A stretch of 23,195 bases of DNA, from positions 1-23,195 of the IMG/VR virus record IMGVR_UViG_2713896904_000008; one strand, written 5' to 3'. The notes under the pieces are model-generated. The model did not search any database, was not told the DNA's origin, and was given only the letters and a program-made list of their open reading frames with translations. Numbering within the stretch: the stretch's first letter is position 1; the number at the start of each line of letters is the position of its first letter. This document shows, one piece after another, positions 688 to 17,809 of this stretch. A program made the translations under genes and the position numbers. This DNA is from a virus (taxonomy: Duplodnaviria > Heunggongvirae > Uroviricota > Caudoviricetes).

Positions 688-711
688 GGGACTCTTCGGA
701 GTCCCTTTTTT
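688..711 (+). terminator. Rho-independent terminator with UUCG tetraloop (gggactc-ttcg-gagtccc + TTTTTT)
   Basis: Perfect 7-bp stem, TTCG loop, T6 run; abuts stop of the convergent minus-strand gene. Confidence 0.6.
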
Positions 712-1669
712 ATTGGCAGTAAGAAAAGTTAGTACCGTACATTTCATCATGAAGCATTGCAACATTGCGTTTCTGTTCTTCTTCCTCGTCTACCGCATCA
801 CTAGAAAAATGAGATTTGCCCTTAAAAGAACGAAGCAATTGCAGTGCAGCCATCGGATCACGCATCACATCGATTTTCACTTCTACTTCATCATTTGCGG
901 CCTCATCAGCCGCGTTTTCAACTACTGCCACCGGAGCAACTTCTTTAGTTTTCAGTTCTTCAATCTCAGCTTTCTGGGCTTCGATGATCTGGTCTTTTTC
1001 TTCCAGTGCAGCTTTCAGTTTTTCAATCTCAGCTTTCTGTGCTTCGATGATCTGGTCTTTTTCTTCCAGTGAAGTAAAGCGCGGAGAAACAGCATTCACC
1101 TGTGCTTCCAGTTCCAGGAATGCTTCACAAGATTCAATGCGTTCTTTCAATTCACCTTCATACGCAACCACTTCTACTACTTCTTTCTCAGTAGCGTGGC
1201 TGTTAAAGAATACAGCAAAGTAAGGATTACCGGATTTGGTGAAGTTCAGTTTAGCTTTTCCGGTAACTTCTTTACGACGACCAAAGGTAATGTTGCAATC
1301 AGCGGTATCCTGAAAATCCATGTTAGGAGCGGAAACAATAGCAGTATCACCAGCAATCACCAGGTGGAACAGTTCAGAAGAGTTCTTAACGGTGAAAGTA
1401 ACGATGTGGTCTACTGCAACGTCTTTAGCAGGTTTAACACGGTCGATTGCTTTACGAATGCCGTTAGGCAGTTTACCGTCAACACCAAAGCCAGCCGCGA
1501 TCAGTGCTTCACGATGTGCTTTAAAGCCAGCGAAAGCGGATTTCTGCTGCGCAAAGGAAACATGAGCAACAACTTTCGGCTGAATCTTCTTGTTTGCTTC
1601 GGTGCCAAATTTGATAACTGCTTTAGCGTTGGTTACTTCGTTAGTGAAAAAGTTAGCGGAAAATAACAT
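710..1669 (-). CDS. Hypothetical abundant early protein with central coiled-coil tandem repeat and acidic C-terminus (319 aa)
   Basis: Long ORF with AGGAG RBS 8 nt upstream of ATG; highly biased codon usage; 21-aa repeat LEEKDQIIEAQKAEIEKLKAA x2; plus-strand ORFs 713-1666 are its shadows. Confidence 0.75.
   Translation of the reverse strand: MLFSANFFTNEVTNAKAVIKFGTEANKKIQPKVVAHVSFAQQKSAFAGFKAHREALIAAGFGVDGKLPNGIRKAIDRVKPAKDVAVDHIVTFTVKNSSELFHLVIAGDTAIVSAPNMDFQDTADCNITFGRRKEVTGKAKLNFTKSGNPYFAVFFNSHATEKEVVEVVAYEGELKERIESCEAFLELEAQVNAVSPRFTSLEEKDQIIEAQKAEIEKLKAALEEKDQIIEAQKAEIEELKTKEVAPVAVVENAADEAANDEVEVKIDVMRDPMAALQLLRSFKGKSHFSSDAVDEEEEQKRNVAMLHDEMYGTNFSYCQ
949..1074. repeat. 63-bp perfect-to-near-perfect tandem duplication (x2) inside the 319-aa gene
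   Basis: ttcaatctcagctttctg(g/t)gcttcgatgatctggtctttttcttccagtg repeated with 63-nt offset. Confidence 0.7.
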
Positions 1670-1783: not shown

Positions 1784-1966
1784 TTACCAAACGGTAGCTT
1801 CAATCTTCACTTTAATGTCATACTTCTTTAAAAGTTTGTGGAAGGTTGATTGATCAATACCTTCACCTTTAAACCATTCACCCATCACTACATCAGGTGT
1901 CAGTTCAAAATAACGCTTTGCCATTTCTAAAACGATTTCACGAGTGAACTTAACAGGTCGTGCCAT
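1784..1966 (-). CDS. Small putative HTH DNA-binding protein (60 aa), paralog of 5426..5656
   Basis: Strong RBS AGGAGGA; shares N-motif (R-P-x-K/R-F-T/D-R-E) and C-motif (GI-x-Q/S-x-F-H/Y-K-L/S-L-K/H-K-Y/V-D-I/L-K) with ORFs 5426..5656 and 5685..6287. Confidence 0.6.
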   Translation of the reverse strand: MARPVKFTREIVLEMAKRYFELTPDVVMGEWFKGEGIDQSTFHKLLKKYDIKVKIEATVW

Positions 1967-2031
1967 CTTAAATCCTCCTAAATCTGGATTAATGATTTCT
2001 TAAAAAAAGAGCGTTAACCGCTCACTATTAT

Positions 2032-2060
2032 TTATATGGGGATTGTTTTTAATTTTTCAA
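2032..2060 (-). promoter_or_regulatory. Sigma70-like promoter for the leftward 1966..1784 gene (minus-strand TTGAAA-17-ATATAA) with a 5-bp-arm inverted repeat (2009-2023) at the predicted start site
   Basis: Hexamers read on reverse complement: -35 at 2055-2060, -10 at 2032-2037, 17-nt spacer. Confidence 0.4.
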
Positions 2061-2474
2061 CCCCTCACATTTATCTCTTATATATGTATTTATAACAGAG
2101 ATATGTTAAAATGTTATTTGGATGTTATCAGGCGTGTTAAATGTGTTAAACCACAGCACGAATTGCTAAAGCGAAGAACACGAATTAACCAAATTGATGT
2201 TTATTCAATCAATTTAGAAAATTGCATAGCACTTTTTGCTAAAGCGGTGAGCATTAATTGAGCTATGAATTGTAAAGATTTGTTACAAGATTTTCTCTCA
2301 GATCCAAATCTTCACAGACATATAACAATTTAACAGAAGGATAACAAATGGAAGGAAAATCGGTAAATTTTCACTTTCAATACAAATATTATACCACATT
2401 TTTCTCGAATCGTCAATTATAGCACCGAACCGACATAGTGTCAAGAATGGACTTTCAAACCTACACTATGAAAA

Positions 2475-2640
2475 TTGCCCCTGAATTTTGCCCCCGAATA
2501 AAATCCCCAAGATTCTACTATCCCATTTTTGCCCCTGAAATTCCGGGAAACAGTGATTTTGCCCCTCATTTTTGCCCCTGAAATGCCAATAATTGCCCCT
2601 GAAAATCTAATTTTTGCCCCTGAAATTTGCCCCCGAAAAG
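2475..2640. repeat. Array of 8 direct repeats of TTTTGCCCC(T/C)GAAA (iteron-like)
   Basis: Copies at about 2475, 2486, 2526, 2557, 2569, 2592, 2611 and 2626; same motif forms the left arm of the terminator at 5122-5146. Confidence 0.7.
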
Positions 2641-2773
2641 GATTGGTGAGAAAAACTCTTTATAAAACATTAACTTAGTGATTGGTGAAAGCGGGGGATC
2701 GGGCGTGCATAGATATTATATAACACATTCGCTACGCTCATGTGTAAAACCAAAAATAACCAAAAAGATATTA

Positions 2774-2793
2774 GGAGGGCTTTAGCCCGACTG
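2774..2793. repeat. 20-bp direct repeat ggagggctttagcccgactg, copy 1
   Basis: Exact match to 3164-3183. Confidence 0.7.
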
Positions 2794-3163
2794 CGCGAAG
2801 CGCCAACCAATTGCTTCTAGTAACAACTAATTTAAACTAGATGATACTAGATGGTCTTAGAAGGAATTAACTAGTTTGCTCGCTCGCTTCGCTCACTCTC
2901 AAACGTCTGCGACGCCACTGCGTGGCATCGAGAATCACTTTCGAAAGGATTTTCTTGAAAGGGATTTTAAACTAGTTACTAACTGATTCTAGTAAACGAA
3001 CGAAGTGAGTAACAATCACTTTCTAGAAAGGTATTGGTATCCCTTCGGGATTGCAACCTTCGGTTGCTAAATTGCTTCCTGATTATTATTTCTCCAAAAG
3101 AAAGATTCTTATATTCTAAAGATACTTCTTCGTTTTGGTGATGATTTAATCAAAATCTATGAA

Positions 3164-3183
3164 GGAGGGCTTTAGCCCGACTG
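3164..3183. repeat. 20-bp direct repeat ggagggctttagcccgactg, copy 2
   Basis: Exact match to 2774-2793; the two copies bracket a ~370-bp CTAG-rich, hairpin-rich ORF-free segment. Confidence 0.7.
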
Positions 3184-3271
3184 AATCCAATCACTTCCAA
3201 ATAGATAAAAAATTCTCGTTATAAATACTAGTGTAATTTGTTTGATTCACTTTCTTTTAGAGGATACCACT

Positions 3272-5113: not shown

Positions 5114-5121
5114 TAATTTTT

Positions 5122-5146
5122 GCCCCTGAATTTCAGGGGCTTTTTG
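5122..5146 (+). terminator. Rho-independent terminator (gcccctg-aattt-caggggc + TTTTT)
   Basis: Perfect stem and T-run immediately after the Rha-like gene stop. Confidence 0.7.
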
Positions 5147-5425: not shown

Positions 5426-5656
5426 TCAAATTCCTGTTGCTTCTACCATTTCACCATCAACCTGAACAAAGAATTTCAAATCAACTTTATGGAGTGATTT
5501 GTAGAATTGAGCGATTGAAATACCGTGTTCACTCAATACTTGCTCTTTTTCGGCTTTACCTTTCGGCGCTTGATAGTACGCTTTTACAATCGCTGCCAGT
5601 TGTTCACGATCAAAACGGCAAGGACGACCGCGAGTAGCTTTAGTAGTCATAGTCAT
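5426..5656 (-). CDS. Small putative HTH DNA-binding protein (76 aa; likely start at the internal ATG 5650)
   Basis: RBS GGAG upstream; N-motif TRGRPCRFDREQLAAIVKAYYQ and C-motif GISIAQFYKSLHKVDLK shared with 1784..1966 and 5685..6287. Confidence 0.6.
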   Translation of the reverse strand: MTMTTKATRGRPCRFDREQLAAIVKAYYQAPKGKAEKEQVLSEHGISIAQFYKSLHKVDLKFFVQVDGEMVEATGI

Positions 5657-5684: not shown

Positions 5685-6287
5685 TTATTTAGAGGACTTA
5701 CATTTTATCGGAAAAAGTTCTCCATCGTCAATACTCATAAAGAACTCTGCCTTAATCCCGTACTTCTTCAACCGTGAATAGTATGTACCCCGACTTATAT
5801 CAACCTTGCGAAGCACTTCAAAGAACCCTTTAGGATCGTTGTAATAGTGGCTATAACGCACGTTAGCGAGTTCAACGAATAGTTCCCTTGTATCACCATA
5901 GCCTTTCTTGAAAGCCTCGTTACGATAGCGTGTAATTGCGTGATTCAATCTCTTCTGTTTCAACACTTCCCTGATCGGTGTCCACTGCAACCGATAGATA
6001 GGACCGTCATCCACTCGATAATAACGCTTGATATCAAAATCAAACCATTCACGGACTCTCTGGAACTCTGTCTGTGATGTTCGGTGCTTCTTAAAGAAGT
6101 TGTGAATATCTGTATATCCCTGATCGCGATACAACTCTATTAAAATTTGCTTCGCTTCCTCGCGACTAAAGCCGGATGTTGTGTAATCAGTCTTCTTGTG
6201 ATGGTGCTTAACTGGCAAACGATATTCATGATCGGTACAAGACAAGGCTAATTCTAATTCATCTCTTTCTTGCTGATTAATTAGCAT
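5685..6287 (-). CDS. Hypothetical protein (200 aa) carrying both paralog motifs separated by a ~100-aa insert; putative DNA-binding
   Basis: AGGGGG RBS; [16 protein letters not shown] and [17 protein letters not shown] match the motifs of the two small paralogs; divergent from the terminase gene. Confidence 0.65.
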
Positions 6288-6301
6288 ACAACCCCCTTTG
6301 A

Positions 6302-6329
6302 TTAATACCCGTATTTATCAAAATATCAA
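6302..6329 (-). promoter_or_regulatory. Candidate minus-strand promoter (TTGATA-16-TATTAA) for the leftward operon, in the divergent region with the terminase gene
   Basis: Read on reverse complement: -35 at 6324-6329, -10 at 6302-6307. Confidence 0.35.
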
Positions 6330-6372
6330 CAATTTAATAAATACCTTCATATTTCGTAATGAGGGTAATTAC

Positions 6373-8280
6373 ATGAAACTGATTTCGAACAAGGCCAAAT
6401 TAAAAAAGATTCTTAAAAATGCCGCAAAATATATCACTCCACCGCCTAAACTCCTTCCGTCTGAATGGTGCGAAGCGAATATGGTGCTGGTAGATGGTCC
6501 TCAAGCTGGGGATAAAGTTAAATTGTTGTCATTCCAAAAAGGCATGATTGATGCACCTTTCCTTGAGAACAAGAAAAAGTATGTTCTGATGACCAGTGCG
6601 CAGATCGGAAAGACTACCATCCTGAACGGTATCCTGTTTAACCAGATGGCTAACGATCCATGCAATATGATTATCGGACAATCAACCGCTAAAGAAATGT
6701 CTCAATATCTCGCGGGTAAGATCCGACCGTCTATCGAAGCATGTGATGCATTAAAAGACGTGGTTACAGACAAGAATGATCGCAATGCGGTTAACAACAA
6801 TAACCAGCTACAGCTAAAAACGAATCACTTCCTGTACATGGTATCGCTTACCAGTCCATCAACCCTACGTGGTAAGACCGCAAAGGTTGGATTGCTTGAC
6901 GAAATCGATGCTGCTACAGCCTCAGAAGAAGGTGATCCGGTGGCGCTGGCTGCTAACCGTTTAACTACCTTTGGCGATGAAGGTCGATTAGTCGTATCCA
7001 GTACCCCGACCAGTAAGCTCGGAAGCATTAACCAACAATGGTTATCAAGCGATATGCGTATGTTTTTTGTTCCGTGTCCTCATTGCGGTAGACACCAGGT
7101 GATCGAGTGGGAAAACGTTCAATTTGAATGGCGTAACATCGATGGTAAGAATTTACCCGATCCTGATACCGCTCGTTATATTTGCCCCCATTGTAAGAAC
7201 GCATGGACAGAAGGGGAACGAATCAGGGCAGTAGCGCAAGGCGAGTGGAGAGCAACCCGTGAAAGTGAAGTAGCAGGATTCTGGATTAGCCGTCTGTATT
7301 CACCTTTCAGCACGATCCGCGCTTGTGTGGTTGATTTTAGTCATGCGTGGCAATCCTTTGATTTACAATCATTTTATAACACCGTGTTAGGCAAGGTATA
7401 CGATGATCAGGACACGGCAGTAGAAGCAAATGAACTGGAAAAACTCAAAACAGATGTTTCTATCGAGAATATCCCTGATGACGTGATTTTCTTGTGCTCA
7501 GGAATTGACCAGCAATTGGATCGCGCAGAATCTACCATCTTAGGTGTAGCGAAAGATAAGGTTTACATTCTGGATCACCGTAGCTTTTACGATCATAACT
7601 GTGAACGATACGAATCACCTGTATGGGATCGTCTGGTTAACTTCAAGAAAACCAAATTCTATAACGTTAATGGTGAACGTGTGCCAATGCTCGCCAGCTT
7701 CCTCGATACATCAAACGGTCGATTCACTCAAGCCGGATACCGTATTTGTGGTAAGTGGAAGAACCTACACGCTATTAAAGGTAGTTCATCCGGTAATGCT
7801 CCAGTGATTCCGGTTAAACCTACCCGCACAGGTGGTCATGAATTGCTTATGCTGGGCGTTAACGTTGGTAAATCCGCTGTTCGTGAAATGCTGGTTAGAA
7901 ACCTGAAAGATAATCCTCATATTGGCTTAGAAATATCAGAAACCGTTCCTGATGATTATCTCGATCAGCTTTTGAGTGAATCCATCAAGCGTACTACTAC
8001 TGGTGTTCGTTGGGTGAAAAATCCAGGTAGTACCCGAAACGAGGCTCTCGACTGTCTGGTTTATAGCTATGCTGCTTCTCGCTACGTTCTTTCAAAAATG
8101 TCATGGGATAAACTCATTGCAATGAAAGACAGCTTAAACCGTGTTGTCGAAGAATCCGTAGAAGCTCATAAATCGCAATCTGACGAGCAAATCGAAGAAA
8201 CTAAGCCAAACCCACGACCACAGCGTCAAAACATCGCCAGACGTCCAAATAGAGGCCGTAGCTGGGTAACATCGTTCTAA
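6373..8280 (+). CDS. Terminase large subunit (lambda GpA-like), 635 aa from ATG 6373
   Basis: GAGGG RBS 7 nt before ATG 6373 (ORF track starts at 6298); Walker A-like [11 protein letters not shown]; size and position immediately upstream of portal. Confidence 0.85.
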
Positions 8281-12616: not shown

Positions 12617-12907
12617 ATGTTCAAATTATCAGAATCACAATTAAATCGAATGTTTAAGAGTGCTCCTGTTTTTGTCGTGGAAGGTGGTAAATCAATTCGT
12701 GCTTACCATGAAATTACTACTACCGACGAACAAGGGGTATGGACAGAATCAGAATTCTTATTCTGTCGTGAGGGAGATTTAAAGCAAGGTGATATTGTCA
12801 TTGTAGAAAATCAGCGTTTCAAAGTTCAATACATTAAGCGCAATGGTGACAATACCAGTGATTGCTTTATCACTTTAGCAGGGGGTGCTCATGCTCGCTA
12901 CCGTTAA
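12617..12907 (+). CDS. Putative head-completion / head-tail adaptor protein (96 aa)
   Basis: GGGGGTAA RBS; small ORF directly after capsid gene; synteny-based. Confidence 0.5.
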   Translation: MFKLSESQLNRMFKSAPVFVVEGGKSIRAYHEITTTDEQGVWTESEFLFCREGDLKQGDIVIVENQRFKVQYIKRNGDNTSDCFITLAGGAHARYR

Positions 12908-13313
12908 TAATATGCCACGTCTTAAGATTAAACGTGCTTTACAGGATATTATCGAACAAGATCTAGGTCTGGCTTTAAACGTAGAACAAACTCAGCAAGG
13001 CTTTAGTGATGACGTGGTTTGTTGGATCACCGGAATGAATGAGACTTACAATAGGGTCCGTGGCGGTAATGCAATGCAAGCTGAATGCGTTATCGAAATG
13101 CAATTGTATTCTCAGATTCATGAAACCAAAATTCATGAGGGTATTTGCCAGATAATCCAGATTCAGCCAGATAACCCACGTTTTAAAGATTTGGGCTTCG
13201 CTATTTCAGATATCACTCCAGTAGCCTCTAATACCGATTATGACGACGATTCTAGTGATGGGGGTATCGTTGGGACACTTAGCCTTAAATTTTCTTATCT
13301 AGCGCGTTTTTAA
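12891..13313 (+). CDS. Putative head-tail joining / tail completion protein (141 aa from ATG 12891; ORF track starts at GTG 12885)
   Basis: AGGGGG 5 nt before ATG 12891; 17-nt overlap with upstream gene suggests translational coupling; synteny-based. Confidence 0.5.
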   Translation: MLATVNNMPRLKIKRALQDIIEQDLGLALNVEQTQQGFSDDVVCWITGMNETYNRVRGGNAMQAECVIEMQLYSQIHETKIHEGICQIIQIQPDNPRFKDLGFAISDITPVASNTDYDDDSSDGGIVGTLSLKFSYLARF

Positions 13314-14233: not shown

Positions 14234-17200
14234 ATGCAGTCGATCCAATTTAAACGCACACAGACGGCTGGTAAAAAGCCAACGCCGGAACAATTACAGG
14301 TCGGTGAAATCGCTATTCAGATGGCAGACCATGTAATTTATACCAAAGATAAAAATAACGCAGTAGTTCAAGTAAGTGTTTCTCCTGAAAGTCATAATGC
14401 TTTAAACACAAAAGTAGACAATAACAAGAAAACTACTGATGCGACTATCGCGGCAAATAAAACCGAAGCTGCTAACGCTCTGGCTACCGCTAAATCTGAA
14501 CTGAATAACACGATTAACACGAAAGATACAGCGACCAATAAGCGCATTGATGCTACTAACACCACTGTTAGTAACTTAACCCAGACAGTTACGGCAAATA
14601 AAACCGACGCTGACACCAAGATCAATAACCTTACGGGGACAGTTGCATCTAACAAATCAGCTATTGAAACTACAGTAGCTAATAACAAACGAGATGCGGA
14701 CAATAAAATCGCAGCTTTAACCACGACGGTTAATGACAATAACACCGCGATTAACAACAAAGTTAATACCACTAACACCAACGTTAGCAACTTAACTAAA
14801 ACTGTTACTGCAAATAAAACCGATGCAGATAACAAAATTTCTAGCTTAACTAGCACGGTTGCAGCTAACAAAACAGCGATTGAAAAGGTCGTTTCCGACA
14901 ACAAGAAAGATGCTGATACTAAAATCAGTAACCTTACAGGGACGGTGAATAGCAACCATACCGCTATTAACGCAAAGGTTGACAAAAACAAAACTGATAC
15001 TGATTCAGCGATCGCAGCCGCTAACCGTCGAATTGATTCTATTGAAGGTAGTAACGATGCTCTTTACATCAAGAAGAATACCAACACTTATCATCACGGC
15101 TATTTGTTAACCAAAACAGCTAACTATCTGGAAGACCAGACATCACGAGATCTTAACTACTTTGGTGCTTTCCGAACTAATGGACAAGATGGACTCATGG
15201 ATCTAACTCTTAATGTTCCTCATTCTGCCGGTAAAGCGCACGGTCGCGGATTTACTTTCCGTTATGCGTCTGGTGGATCTCGTGTTGAAACCTATGGTTT
15301 TGATAGAGAAGGACAGAAGAACTTTAGCTATAAGATGTATCACGAAGGTGATAAGCCGACTCCTGGCGAAATCGGTGCATACACTAAAGCAGAAGTTGAC
15401 AAGATGTTTGTTAAAAACGTCACTATGTCTGTTCCTAATTCTAGCGAAAACGTATCTGCATATTTCAAATTGGCAACCGCAACAATTCCACAAAACGGGC
15501 GTAGTGTGTTTTTCCGTATTCATGGTGGTAATGGTTACAACGTTACGGCATATGACCAAGTTGATGTAGTAGAAATTCTTCTCCGTAGTGGTAACGATAG
15601 ACCTAAAGGACTTAACGTAATTGCATACCGTAGAAATACAAACAAAGATTTTGAGGTATTTGCTGTCAATACTTCCGGTGATAACTATGATATCTACGTG
15701 AAATATCAGCGTTATACCGATAACGTTATTGTCGAATATGGGAAATCTGTTTATGTAAGTTTGACGGTTTATGATACGCCGGAAGCCACGTTAATTAAAC
15801 CTTCCGTTGGTGTTATCGGTGGTCGCAACGTAACTCTTTTTAACACAGAAAATAAACGTGGTGTGTTGAGTTTTGACGACAATACACAAAACAGCTATGA
15901 CATTGTTCATCTAAGCAATGATAGAGGTACTGGACGGAAATATATTCGTAAATTCCGTAGCAACTATAACGAAATGATCTGGCATGAGACTGTTCAAGGT
16001 AATACATATCGATTGGCAACCGGAACGACTGATGCATCGGAAGTTTTTAGAATTACTAGTCGCACCATGTTTACTGGTAAAGGTGTATTTGATGCCGGAC
16101 AAAACGTTCTTAGATTAGAGCGTCCTAGCAACCAATCAAACTATATTGAATGGCAAGACCGCCGAAATGGTGCTGATGCTCGTCAAGGTTGGATCGGTTT
16201 TGGTGGTGCTGAAACAAATAACTTTCAATGGTATAGCGATCAAGGAAAAAACTCATTCCTGTTGGATGCTAATGGTCAATGCTCTATTATTACTGGTGCA
16301 ACAAAAATTGTATATACCAACGGTGAATATTGCTCTGGCAACTCTAACGCATATCGTATGGCATTTGGTAACTATGGCGCATTCTGGCGTAATGACGGCA
16401 CTAAAGTTTATCTGTTGTCTACTGCTGAAAACGATAAGTTGGGCGGCTGGAATACTTATCGACCATTCATTTATGATTTAACTTCCGGTAACGTTCAATT
16501 AGGCGGTGATGGTAACGAAGATGCATTAACGTTAGAACGTGCTTCTCGTGCCGCTCGCTTTAGTAATGACGTTTACATTAAGAAAGGGCATTTGACTTTC
16601 GACGCTGGACGATTAGGATCTCGTGATTTCTTTAAAATCAACCATTGGGGTGATAGCAATAACGCCCGTGATAACATTTTGCAGTTTGAAGACAGTCAGG
16701 GCGCACATTTTACCACTGAACGTGCTATGGGTACTGGTAACATAACAGCACGTTTTAAAGGCTTTGTTCGTGTTGAGTCTGGTGAGATTGCATTTGATGC
16801 TAATCGGGGGTCGCAGTCTCAATTCACCTTACACACATGGGGTAACGAGCAACGCAAACAGGTTTTTGAATGTAAGGATGCTACAAGTTATCACTGGTAT
16901 ACTGAACGTACTCAGGGTGGCACTGGACCTATTCTGTTCGCTATGGCGGGTAGTCTAAACGTTGCTAGCAATATCACAACAACTGGTGCTGATATTACGT
17001 TTAAACGCGCTGGCAATAAGCACATCTGGTTTAGAGATCCAGACGGTTTAGAGTTAGGCTTGATGTACTGCGATGATGCTGGTGCTATTCGCTTCCGTGG
17101 TCAGAAACAAGCCCAGACGTGGAAACTTGCGGATAAGATGATTCATCTTGAATCTGGTAGCGTCGGCGGGTCTGATAAAGGTTTGATTCGTGGTAACGTT

Positions 17201-17809
17201 TCTGGTGGTAGTTGGGCTAGCTGGCGTGACCGTGCTTCCGGTTTACAAGTTGATTGTCCTCAATCAACCGATTCCGCTCATAACATCTGGAAAGCGACTC
17301 ATTGGGGAAAATATCATATTGCGGCAATGGGTGTGCATGTTCCTGGCGGCACTATAGGTAATGCTATGGCACGTCTAAACGTAAATGACGCCAACTTTGA
17401 CTTTAACGCTGCGGGTGATTTTAGCGCAGGTCGTAACGGTAGCTTTAACGATGTTTATATTCGTTCTGACCGTCGTCTGAAAGTTAATCTGGAAGAATTA
17501 AAAGATGATGCTTTAGAGAAAGTAAACTCCCTGAAAGTCTACTCATACGATAAAGTTAAGTCTCTTAAAGATCGTAGTGTGATTAAACGCGAAGTCGGTA
17601 TTATTGCTCAGGATCTTGAAGAAGTATTGCCGGAAGCAGTAGGTATTCAATCCACCGAAGATCCAGAAAATCCAGAAGCAATTAAGACTATTTCTAACTC
17701 CGCTGTTAATGCCTTGATTATTAAAGCTATTCAGGAAATGGACGCCAAATATAAAGCCCAGATCGAAGCATTACAGAAAGAAATTGCCGAACTCAAAGCA
17801 ACTAAATAA
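14234..17809 (+). CDS. Long tail fibre protein with C-terminal intramolecular chaperone / self-cleaving domain (1191 aa)
   Basis: N-terminal KRTQTAGKKPTPEQLQVGEIAI anchor-like motif; 72-aa tandem repeats; C-terminus SDRRLK ... GIIAQDLEEVLPEAV resembles the chaperone domain of phage T5 L-shaped fibre and endosialidases (Ser-Lys dyad motif). Confidence 0.85.
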   Translation: MQSIQFKRTQTAGKKPTPEQLQVGEIAIQMADHVIYTKDKNNAVVQVSVSPESHNALNTKVDNNKKTTDATIAANKTEAANALATAKSELNNTINTKDTATNKRIDATNTTVSNLTQTVTANKTDADTKINNLTGTVASNKSAIETTVANNKRDADNKIAALTTTVNDNNTAINNKVNTTNTNVSNLTKTVTANKTDADNKISSLTSTVAANKTAIEKVVSDNKKDADTKISNLTGTVNSNHTAINAKVDKNKTDTDSAIAAANRRIDSIEGSNDALYIKKNTNTYHHGYLLTKTANYLEDQTSRDLNYFGAFRTNGQDGLMDLTLNVPHSAGKAHGRGFTFRYASGGSRVETYGFDREGQKNFSYKMYHEGDKPTPGEIGAYTKAEVDKMFVKNVTMSVPNSSENVSAYFKLATATIPQNGRSVFFRIHGGNGYNVTAYDQVDVVEILLRSGNDRPKGLNVIAYRRNTNKDFEVFAVNTSGDNYDIYVKYQRYTDNVIVEYGKSVYVSLTVYDTPEATLIKPSVGVIGGRNVTLFNTENKRGVLSFDDNTQNSYDIVHLSNDRGTGRKYIRKFRSNYNEMIWHETVQGNTYRLATGTTDASEVFRITSRTMFTGKGVFDAGQNVLRLERPSNQSNYIEWQDRRNGADARQGWIGFGGAETNNFQWYSDQGKNSFLLDANGQCSIITGATKIVYTNGEYCSGNSNAYRMAFGNYGAFWRNDGTKVYLLSTAENDKLGGWNTYRPFIYDLTSGNVQLGGDGNEDALTLERASRAARFSNDVYIKKGHLTFDAGRLGSRDFFKINHWGDSNNARDNILQFEDSQGAHFTTERAMGTGNITARFKGFVRVESGEIAFDANRGSQSQFTLHTWGNEQRKQVFECKDATSYHWYTERTQGGTGPILFAMAGSLNVASNITTTGADITFKRAGNKHIWFRDPDGLELGLMYCDDAGAIRFRGQKQAQTWKLADKMIHLESGSVGGSDKGLIRGNVSGGSWASWRDRASGLQVDCPQSTDSAHNIWKATHWGKYHIAAMGVHVPGGTIGNAMARLNVNDANFDFNAAGDFSAGRNGSFNDVYIRSDRRLKVNLEELKDDALEKVNSLKVYSYDKVKSLKDRSVIKREVGIIAQDLEEVLPEAVGIQSTEDPENPEAIKTISNSAVNALIIKAIQEMDAKYKAQIEALQKEIAELKATK
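14558..14990. repeat. Two tandem ~216-bp repeats (72 aa each, with ~14-aa sub-periodicity TVTANKTDADxKIxxLTxTV) in the fibre shaft
   Basis: NTTVSNLTQTVTANKTDADTKI at residue 109 and NTNVSNLTKTVTANKTDADNKI at residue 181. Confidence 0.7.

Follow-up and report, generated by a model that had tools for sequence, protein, structure and literature searches.

The locus

The stretch of DNA studied here, referred to throughout as the window, comprises positions 1 to 23,195 of the IMG/VR virus record IMGVR_UViG_2713896904_000008 (Caudoviricetes), and our subject is an array of eight direct repeats with the core TTGCCCC at 2475-2640, together with Orf319, a protein encoded on the other strand, 800 bp to its left. 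The array lies in a gene-free control region of 1.3 kb, between a leftward operon (orf60 and orf319) and the rightward structural genes. As judged from the way in which the two vary together among related sequences, the array and the Orf319-type protein probably form a two-part specificity module within this control region. The features that make up the module and its immediate surroundings are:

2475-2640, plus strand: array of eight direct class-A motif copies (motif search, shuffles, alignment and phasing)
710-1669, minus strand: orf319, encoding the putative cognate array-binding protein (class co-variation with the array motif)
2641-2935, no strand: class-specific right flank of the array, including a degenerate inverted copy and the GC-rich GCGGGGGATCGGGCG (break-points, scan and alignment)
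2456-2472, plus strand: one class-B motif copy, CAAACCTACACTATGAA, directly left of the array (motif search and alignment)

The window is part of a chromosomal prophage of about 33-36 kb that occurs in Escherichia coli, Shigella and Escherichia albertii, and which in strain ETEC1717 is a 33-kb element inserted in hicB. From the left end, the ETEC1717 prophage carries a Nu1-like terS (phrog_57), two small membrane open reading frames (ORFs), the leftward orf319 and orf60, the 1.3-kb non-coding region, orf160, variable genes, terL, the head, tail and lysis genes, and, at the right end, a large serine recombinase, which is the integration enzyme of the element. TerL is of the lambda gpA type (6298-8280, from a family search), the portal belongs to the lambda family and the capsid gene encodes a protease-capsid fusion. 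Family searches recognised no replication protein and no CI-type repressor anywhere in the prophage, and no control genes are annotated for the prophage family.

A preliminary description, made from the letters of the window, had placed the repeats in a long ORF-free region; positions 1967-3241 indeed hold short ORFs only, with no homologue or family found or sought for them. With respect to a coding repeat, no ORF with a detected homologue or family match spans the array. There are no RefSeq features over the non-coding region among the E. coli matches listed, Rfam gave no match to the array at gathering score and only chance-level matches at E<=5, and a tRNA scan returned nothing relevant there.

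The repeat array

The TTGCCCC cores start at 2475, 2488, 2529, 2559, 2572, 2593, 2614 and 2627, all on the plus strand, and the full unit has a consensus of about ATTTTTGCCCCTGAAA. Six of the array copies match the 14-mer TTTTGCCCCYGAAA with at most two mismatches and a further match lies at 5118, giving seven in the window against 0.40 expected, a number that was reached in none of 100 shuffles; the two other copies, at 2475 (AAATTGCCCCTGAA) and 2559 (TTTTGCCCCTCATT), differ from the 14-mer in their flanks only. The eight same-strand copies of the preliminary description are thereby confirmed, and the search of the remaining sequence that it called for found that the motif is not spread through the window, TTGCCCC occurring on the plus strand outside the array only at 5120 and 7182 in 23 kb.

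Successive copies are separated by 13, 41, 30, 13, 21, 21 and 13 base pairs (bp), a spacing which had been called irregular but which is in fact helically phased (R=0.78 at a period of 10.7 bp, p=0.026). Phasing was found in all five arrays tested, i.e. that of the window and those of four relatives, with periods of 10.6-11.2 bp and p values of 0.001-0.026 overall (0.001-0.012 in the relatives):

L002 array: R=0.79, period 10.8 bp, p=0.012
L046 array: R=0.89, period 10.7 bp, p=0.008
L025 array: R=0.83, period 11.2 bp, p=0.005
L038 array: R=0.71, period 10.6 bp, p=0.001

Relatives with the same motif have 6-10 copies, and alignment of their loci indicates that the arrays differ by insertion or deletion of whole units. 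The proposal that the repeats lack an inverted partner stands in part: all the copies in the window array are direct, but in most relatives a single copy in inverted orientation, GGGGCAAAA, follows the array on its right at a distance of about 55 bp, and the window has it in degenerate form (GATTGGTGAAAG, 2680-2691). An inverted copy or near-copy of the array's own motif lies to the right of the array in each of the classes described below, with agreement at seven of eight bases in class B. Similarity to class B and C relatives has its break-points at 2935, which bounds the class-specific right flank. To the left, most class-A relatives have two class-B motif copies where the window has one (2456-2472), and this is, judging by the motif, either a relic of exchange within the array or the site of another factor.

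Pairing of array class with protein class

Relatives of the locus were fetched by motif, TerL, TerS and recombinase; the sets used for the pairing (motif, TerL and TerS) overlap and amount to about 35 distinct contigs. At the array position, TTGCCCC is replaced in relatives by CCTACACT, by TCCCCG, or by TCCCCCGGTATTAGG with TGTACAAG, and at the orf319 position the proteins encoded are 300-370 amino acids (aa) long across the classes, which are as follows:

Class A: TTGCCCC, 6-10 copies, with an Orf319-type protein
Class B: (A)AACCTACACT, 6-11 copies, with an unrelated 331-aa protein
Class C: TCCCCG, about 13-16 copies, with a 337-aa protein
Class D: TCCCCCGGTATTAGG (7-8 copies) and GATGTACAAGG (14 copies), with 371-aa and 363-aa proteins

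In every locus that has both features the class of the protein is the class of the motif, with zero exceptions among the approximately 35 distinct contigs. The B-type protein always occurs with a CCTACAC array and the C-type protein always with a TCCCCG array, and each locus that encodes an A-type protein, and in which the array region is present, has a TTGCCCC array. No such co-variation with the array was observed for TerS, TerL, orf60, orf160 or the recombinase (integrase) end; between classes A and B, the identity is 88-99% for TerS and reaches 99% for TerL. When 18 kb were scanned in 300-bp pieces against 15 relatives, only 601-1700, which covers orf319, and 2401-2900, which covers the array and its right flank, were specific to class A.

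The two parts stay together despite free exchange of the segment between them. The block between orf319 and the array is common to some class B and C phages and moves independently. The recombinant L029/L060 has an orf60 identical to that of the window, yet carries a B protein and a B array; in the recombinants L009, L016 and L042, protein and array are both of class A and it is orf60 and the leader that differ. L046, a more distant relative, encodes a protein with an N-terminal domain 56% identical to that of Orf319 and keeps seven copies of ATTTTTGCCCCT, while the spacers and the 3' GAAA have diverged from those of the window; for this reason the functional core is taken to be about 12 bp. 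Prophages resident in the same host comprise one A plus B pair and one possible A plus A pair, too few to count.

Orf319 and its counterparts

Orf319 begins with a divergent N-terminal domain of about 170 aa, which is followed by a coiled coil, an acidic stretch and, at the C terminus, a short tail that it has in common with class B. The family is held together by this architecture (variable N-domain, coiled coil, acidic stretch) rather than by sequence. The coiled coil contains one to four tandem 21-aa repeats (EEKDQIIEAQKAEIEKLKAAL) among class-A proteins that are otherwise near-identical (the P0001, P0014 and P0023 homologues). Most family members end in -AA or -VA, and the window copy in -FSYCQ; -AA and -VA ends resemble ssrA-type ClpXP degradation tags, and lambda O is an unstable ClpXP substrate.

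Orf319 had no match in Pfam, PHROGs, NCBIfam, PADLOC, the PDB sequences or, by tblastn, the phage records, and its counterparts in classes B, C and D gave only sub-threshold coiled-coil noise in Pfam, PHROGs, NCBIfam and PADLOC. The searches run detected in Orf319 no helix-turn-helix, other known domain, initiator family or recognisable fold, and among 1.8 billion representative proteins its N-domain has no more than two informative relatives of similar length, which are 56% and 38% identical to it.

Classes C and D encode a second, paralogous coiled-coil protein beside the first, of 333 and 363 aa and ending in RPTLRLVA (L038 2640-3641 and L069 2640-3731), and class B has only an 80-aa remnant with the RPTLRLVA tail (L025 2989-3231). 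The two different arrays of class D correspond to its two proteins.

Promoters, hairpins and other elements of the control region

The leftward operon is preceded by strong promoter sequences and interrupted by hairpins, the relevant features being:

2388-2444, minus strand: two overlapping sigma-70 consensus promoters, P1 and P2, firing leftward, away from the array and toward orf60
1784-1966, minus strand: orf60, encoding a small probable helix-turn-helix protein, the first gene of the leftward operon (no co-variation with the array)
1712-1743, no strand: hairpin with a 14-bp stem between orf60 and orf319, a possible attenuator before orf319
2009-2023, minus strand: terminator-like hairpin with a T-run, just before the orf60 ribosome-binding site

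P1, TTGACA(2444-2439)-17-TGcTATAAT(to 2416), matches the consensus at 12 of 12 positions and P2, TTGACG(2416-2411)-17-TGgTATAAT(to 2388), at 11 of 12, both with an extended -10; a region of this length would, by a rough estimate, be expected to contain about 0.004 perfect sigma-70 matches. L046 also has a 12/12 promoter at the P1/P2 position. A distance of 31 bp separates the P1 -35 element from the array upstream of it, and the leftward promoter of classes B-D is about 200 bp away from the array. No consensus sigma-70 promoter was found on the plus strand for the late operon. The leftward transcript would consist of a leader of about 400 nucleotides ending in the hairpin at 2023-2009, then orf60, the hairpin at 1743-1712 and orf319; this second hairpin has a strong T-run on the plus strand and a four-T run on the minus strand. 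Within the leader, at 2104-2150, there are five copies of (A/G)TGTTA(A/T), which in their spacing and sequence resemble direct repeats of the ArcA type, and the class B leader has a different repeat, CTGTATGT, at that place.

A partial palindrome, GACA-CTA-TGTC, overlaps the P1 -35 element, and a palindrome TTGACA-N2-4-TGTCAA lies over the leftward -35 in all the classes (window 2432-2444; L025 4899-4912; L038 5323-5336; L069 about 5525-5538). To judge from its position and constancy, it is probably a separate, class-independent operator for a dimeric regulator, perhaps the product of orf60 or orf200. The latter (5685-6287, minus strand) is a conserved leftward gene just upstream of terL that encodes two orf60-like, probable helix-turn-helix domains, the orf60 protein resembling the two repeats in the orf200 protein with BLASTP E values of 5e-4 and 0.11. 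The lysogeny repressor, otherwise missing, may be the product of orf200.

The least stable 50-mer of the non-coding region adjoins the array in classes B and C, as does the second least stable in class D. This AT-rich 50-mer is a conserved element in classes B-D, and in the window P1 and P2 take its place. A single DnaA box is present, which is absent from L046, the sole relative checked, and no exact IHF consensus.

To the right of the array, positions 2700-3240 are dense in short GC hairpins with CTTCGG, GCGAAGC or GTAG loops and in repeated motifs, e.g. CGCT(T/A)CGCTCA, and a 21-nucleotide element, AGGAGGGCTTTAGCCCGACTG, occurs twice (2773 and 3163). RNAalifold, run on seven copies, retained the hairpin and showed no compensatory changes. 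In DCP80 (141 kb, TerL only 43% identical), the nearest deposited phage, the packaging genes are likewise preceded by non-coding DNA rich in hairpins, with similar elements (L001 350-1290). The right half of the non-coding region may, from its hairpins and motifs, be a structured leader of the late operon or part of cos.

The preliminary description had also pointed to a second occurrence of the repeat unit, in the following feature:

5118-5146, plus strand: intrinsic terminator of a Rha-like gene, GCCCCTGAA-T-TTCAGGGGC followed by T5 at 5122-5146 (perfect palindrome)

The identity holds, in that the left arm of the terminator with the T's upstream of it equals one array unit. A functional link between the two is rejected, because relatives of classes B and C, with another array and another protein, have a copy of the terminator upstream of TerL as well. 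The resemblance is one of sequence only and is not linked to class.

Distribution of the prophage family

Of 5426 complete E. coli genomes, 58 contain a match to the non-coding region, in each case in the chromosome, and the 62 places found in complete E. coli genomes are all chromosomal, with none on a plasmid; the prophage family is present in about 1% of these genomes. There are no close relatives among 50,697 phage records. Neither a megablast search of phages and plasmids with the non-coding region nor a distant blastn search of plasmids with the array gave a match; a TerS-anchored scan of species-representative genomes for relatives was without result, and a metagenome scan gave close relatives only. 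Matches to the motif pair in viral contigs beyond this prophage family appear unrelated; the one inspected (L018) is a coding tandem repeat, PEPEYVA. A literature search on the motif and on hicB-integrated prophages returned nothing relevant; none of the libraries or papers that were searchable describes the protein family, its specificities, of which there are at least four, or the prophage family.

Some other features of the prophage were recorded. terS lies to the left of window position 1 (L025 1722-2276), about 6 kb from terL, an unusual split for a lambda-type packaging module, and the gap between the two holds oppositely oriented genes as well as the 1.3-kb non-coding region; no cos site was located. 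The tail-fibre gene (14234-17809, 1191 aa) has, over 15113-17740, about 80-84% DNA identity to the distal long-tail-fibre gene (gp37) of RB49/JSE-type T-even phages, which points to a putative recent exchange of a receptor-binding gene between a temperate prophage and virulent myoviruses. ARAGORN placed a 91-nucleotide tRNA-Gln at 13078-13168 on the minus strand, antisense inside structural-gene ORFs (12885-13313), and this is probably a false positive.

Interpretation

The pairing of protein and motif, the conservation of the core and the helical phasing together make a specific complex of Orf319 with the array likely, the protein presumably binding the repeats directly. The preliminary description had suggested either an iteron-like origin or a cluster of regulator sites, and that general idea fits the pairing, the phasing and the conserved core. 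Our preference, which is tentative and falls somewhat short of an even chance, is for an iteron-type replication origin with Orf319 as its initiator. It is based on the considerations that the phage needs an origin, that no replication protein is recognisable, and that the array and Orf319 are the only repeat-plus-protein pair in the parts examined. Iterons are direct repeats phased with the helix, as are the eight copies here (p=0.026). The usual arrangement in iteron replicons is iterons, promoter and rep gene, in this order, and the locus favours an origin in showing it, together with a flank that would melt easily. The GC skew, which had been proposed as a check, tracks the direction of transcription, and its minimum is near 6.3 kb rather than at the array.

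For an origin, the following course of events can be envisaged. After induction P1 and P2 would express orf60 and then, past the hairpin attenuator, Orf319, the variable N-domain of which would sit on the phased repeats along a single face of the helix, with the coiled coil joining the protomers. The complex could then open the adjoining AT-rich DNA, at which the host helicase and replisome would load and replication would start. A more far-reaching version, which is possible but doubtful, would make the Orf319 types a previously unrecognised class of proteins that bind DNA sequence-specifically. Each would have an N-domain that is rich in beta structure and without a known fold, a coiled coil of variable length and a protease-tag-like C terminus, and would read its own phased array; protein and array would together be all that a minimal family of temperate phages, with no other replication gene, has for its replication.

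The most serious alternative, although we consider it rather unlikely, is a regulatory switch in which the array is a cluster of operator or enhancer sites and Orf319 a class-specific transcription regulator acting in the lysis-lysogeny or the early-late decision. Orf319 might confer immunity by covering the array and repressing the rightward structural operon, like Mu repressor at O1-O3, or it might be an early protein that activates a late promoter to the right of the array; an activator is plausible because no consensus sigma-70 promoter was found for the late operon on the plus strand. The array is situated exactly where the leftward operon and the rightward late operon diverge, and class-specific modules of protein plus site, here with at least four specificities at one position, are typical of phage immunity regions. 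There is no other candidate for a CI-type repressor, the one inverted own-motif copy of each array is on the late-operon side, and the combination of a putative DNA-binding domain, a coiled coil and a ClpX-tag-like C terminus recalls the Mu repressor. However, the array does not overlap the leftward promoters, keeping a distance of 31 bp from the P1 -35 element and of about 200 bp in classes B-D. What looks like a real operator is the class-independent palindrome over the -35 element, for which two helix-turn-helix candidates (orf60 and orf200) are available, and since these can explain control of the promoter, an origin is favoured for the array. The perfect consensus promoters that drive orf319 suggest an early lytic gene, not a maintenance gene. 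Finally, a copy number ranging from 6 to 16, motif copies of a foreign class and variable distances are unusual for promoter-linked sites, and because these properties and the promoter distance vary, we favour an architectural element over a promoter-proximal operator.

The remaining readings are much less probable. Packaging, in which the lambda-type terminase would be guided by the array as a cosB-like cluster and Orf319 would be an accessory factor contributing to specificity, is suggested by the location of the array between terS, which ends just left of the window, and terL, and by the motifs that the right part of the non-coding region has in common with the region upstream of the DCP80 packaging genes. 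We regard it as very improbable: classes A and B have entirely different arrays but a TerS that is 88-99% and a TerL that is up to 99% identical between them, therefore the terminase cannot be reading the array, and we know of no terminase accessory protein of the Orf319 kind. Similarly improbable is a centromere-like or tethering site, at which Orf319 would segregate or anchor the phage DNA in the manner of parC/ParR or omega-heptad systems. Short phased direct repeats in variable copy number upstream of the operon that encodes their binding protein would suit such a role, as would a coiled-coil protein that could bridge DNA, but family searches detected no encoded NTPase of the ParA, ParM or TubZ type, and all 62 E. 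coli places are chromosomal, the element integrating via its large serine recombinase; a partition role is disfavoured on these two grounds. Least credible of all is the absence of any sequence-specific function, with the repeats being debris of slippage or recombination that travels with orf319 by physical linkage. Protein and array are indeed at most 1.8 kb apart and many of the prophages sampled are close relatives. Against this, the core is kept in the 56%-identical relative despite its diverged spacers, at least four unrelated motifs occupy the one position, the arrays tested are all helically phased, and the intervening segment recombines freely, yet no mismatched pair of protein and array was seen.

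Phased repeats that are read by a protein encoded next to them are a known kind of feature, and the interest of the present example lies in its components. If the array is an origin, the system would be a plasmid-style iteron replicon with an unrelated initiator, and the interchangeable classes would be replication or incompatibility types. Whichever its function, the pairing of array and protein offers a concrete and cheap entry to the question of how a stripped-down phage replicates or chooses between lysogeny and lysis. A family of putative DNA-binding proteins with no known fold and at least four natural specificities is also material for work on the evolution of protein-DNA recognition.

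Comparison with known systems

With the Mu repressor (c) and O1-O3, the locus shares many short sites over about 200 bp, a leftward regulator gene opposed to a rightward lytic operon, and a protein with a putative N-terminal DNA-binding domain and a coiled-coil oligomerisation region, together with a C terminus that in Mu governs ClpXP sensitivity. It differs from Mu in that there is no similarity of sequence or fold, in that all sites but one have the same orientation and lie off the mapped promoter elements, and in that orf319 is driven by perfect consensus promoters behind two hairpins. Comparison with the R sites of lambda cosB and Nu1 reveals a similar lambda-type module (gpA-type TerL, Nu1-like TerS and lambda-family portal) and repeats in non-coding DNA upstream of terL, whereas TerS does not co-vary with the repeats here, and there are at least eight direct copies as against three R sites in lambda. 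ParR/parC of R1 and the omega heptads of pSM19035 likewise have direct repeats of 7-12 bp, phased at about 11 bp and located upstream of the operon of their binder, and are bound in a cooperative, filament-like manner; unlike these systems, the present element is an integrated prophage with no partition NTPase, and Orf319 is about three times larger with a long coiled coil.

The iteron origins considered, i.e. P1 oriR/RepA, F ori2/RepE, lambda ori/O and SaPI ori/Rep, differ from the locus in several respects. Orf319 lacks a Rep_3, winged-helix, O-like or helicase signature, the DnaA boxes do not form a conserved cluster, the motif core is only 7-12 bp, and some of the relatives have two proteins and two arrays. 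The likenesses to these origins are nonetheless broad: short repeats that are phased and in the same orientation, a specificity that is paired with an adjacent protein, an AT-rich flank that would melt easily, a layout of repeats, promoter and gene, tolerance of variable copy number, and exchange as a module between related phages, as is the case for initiator-origin pairs.
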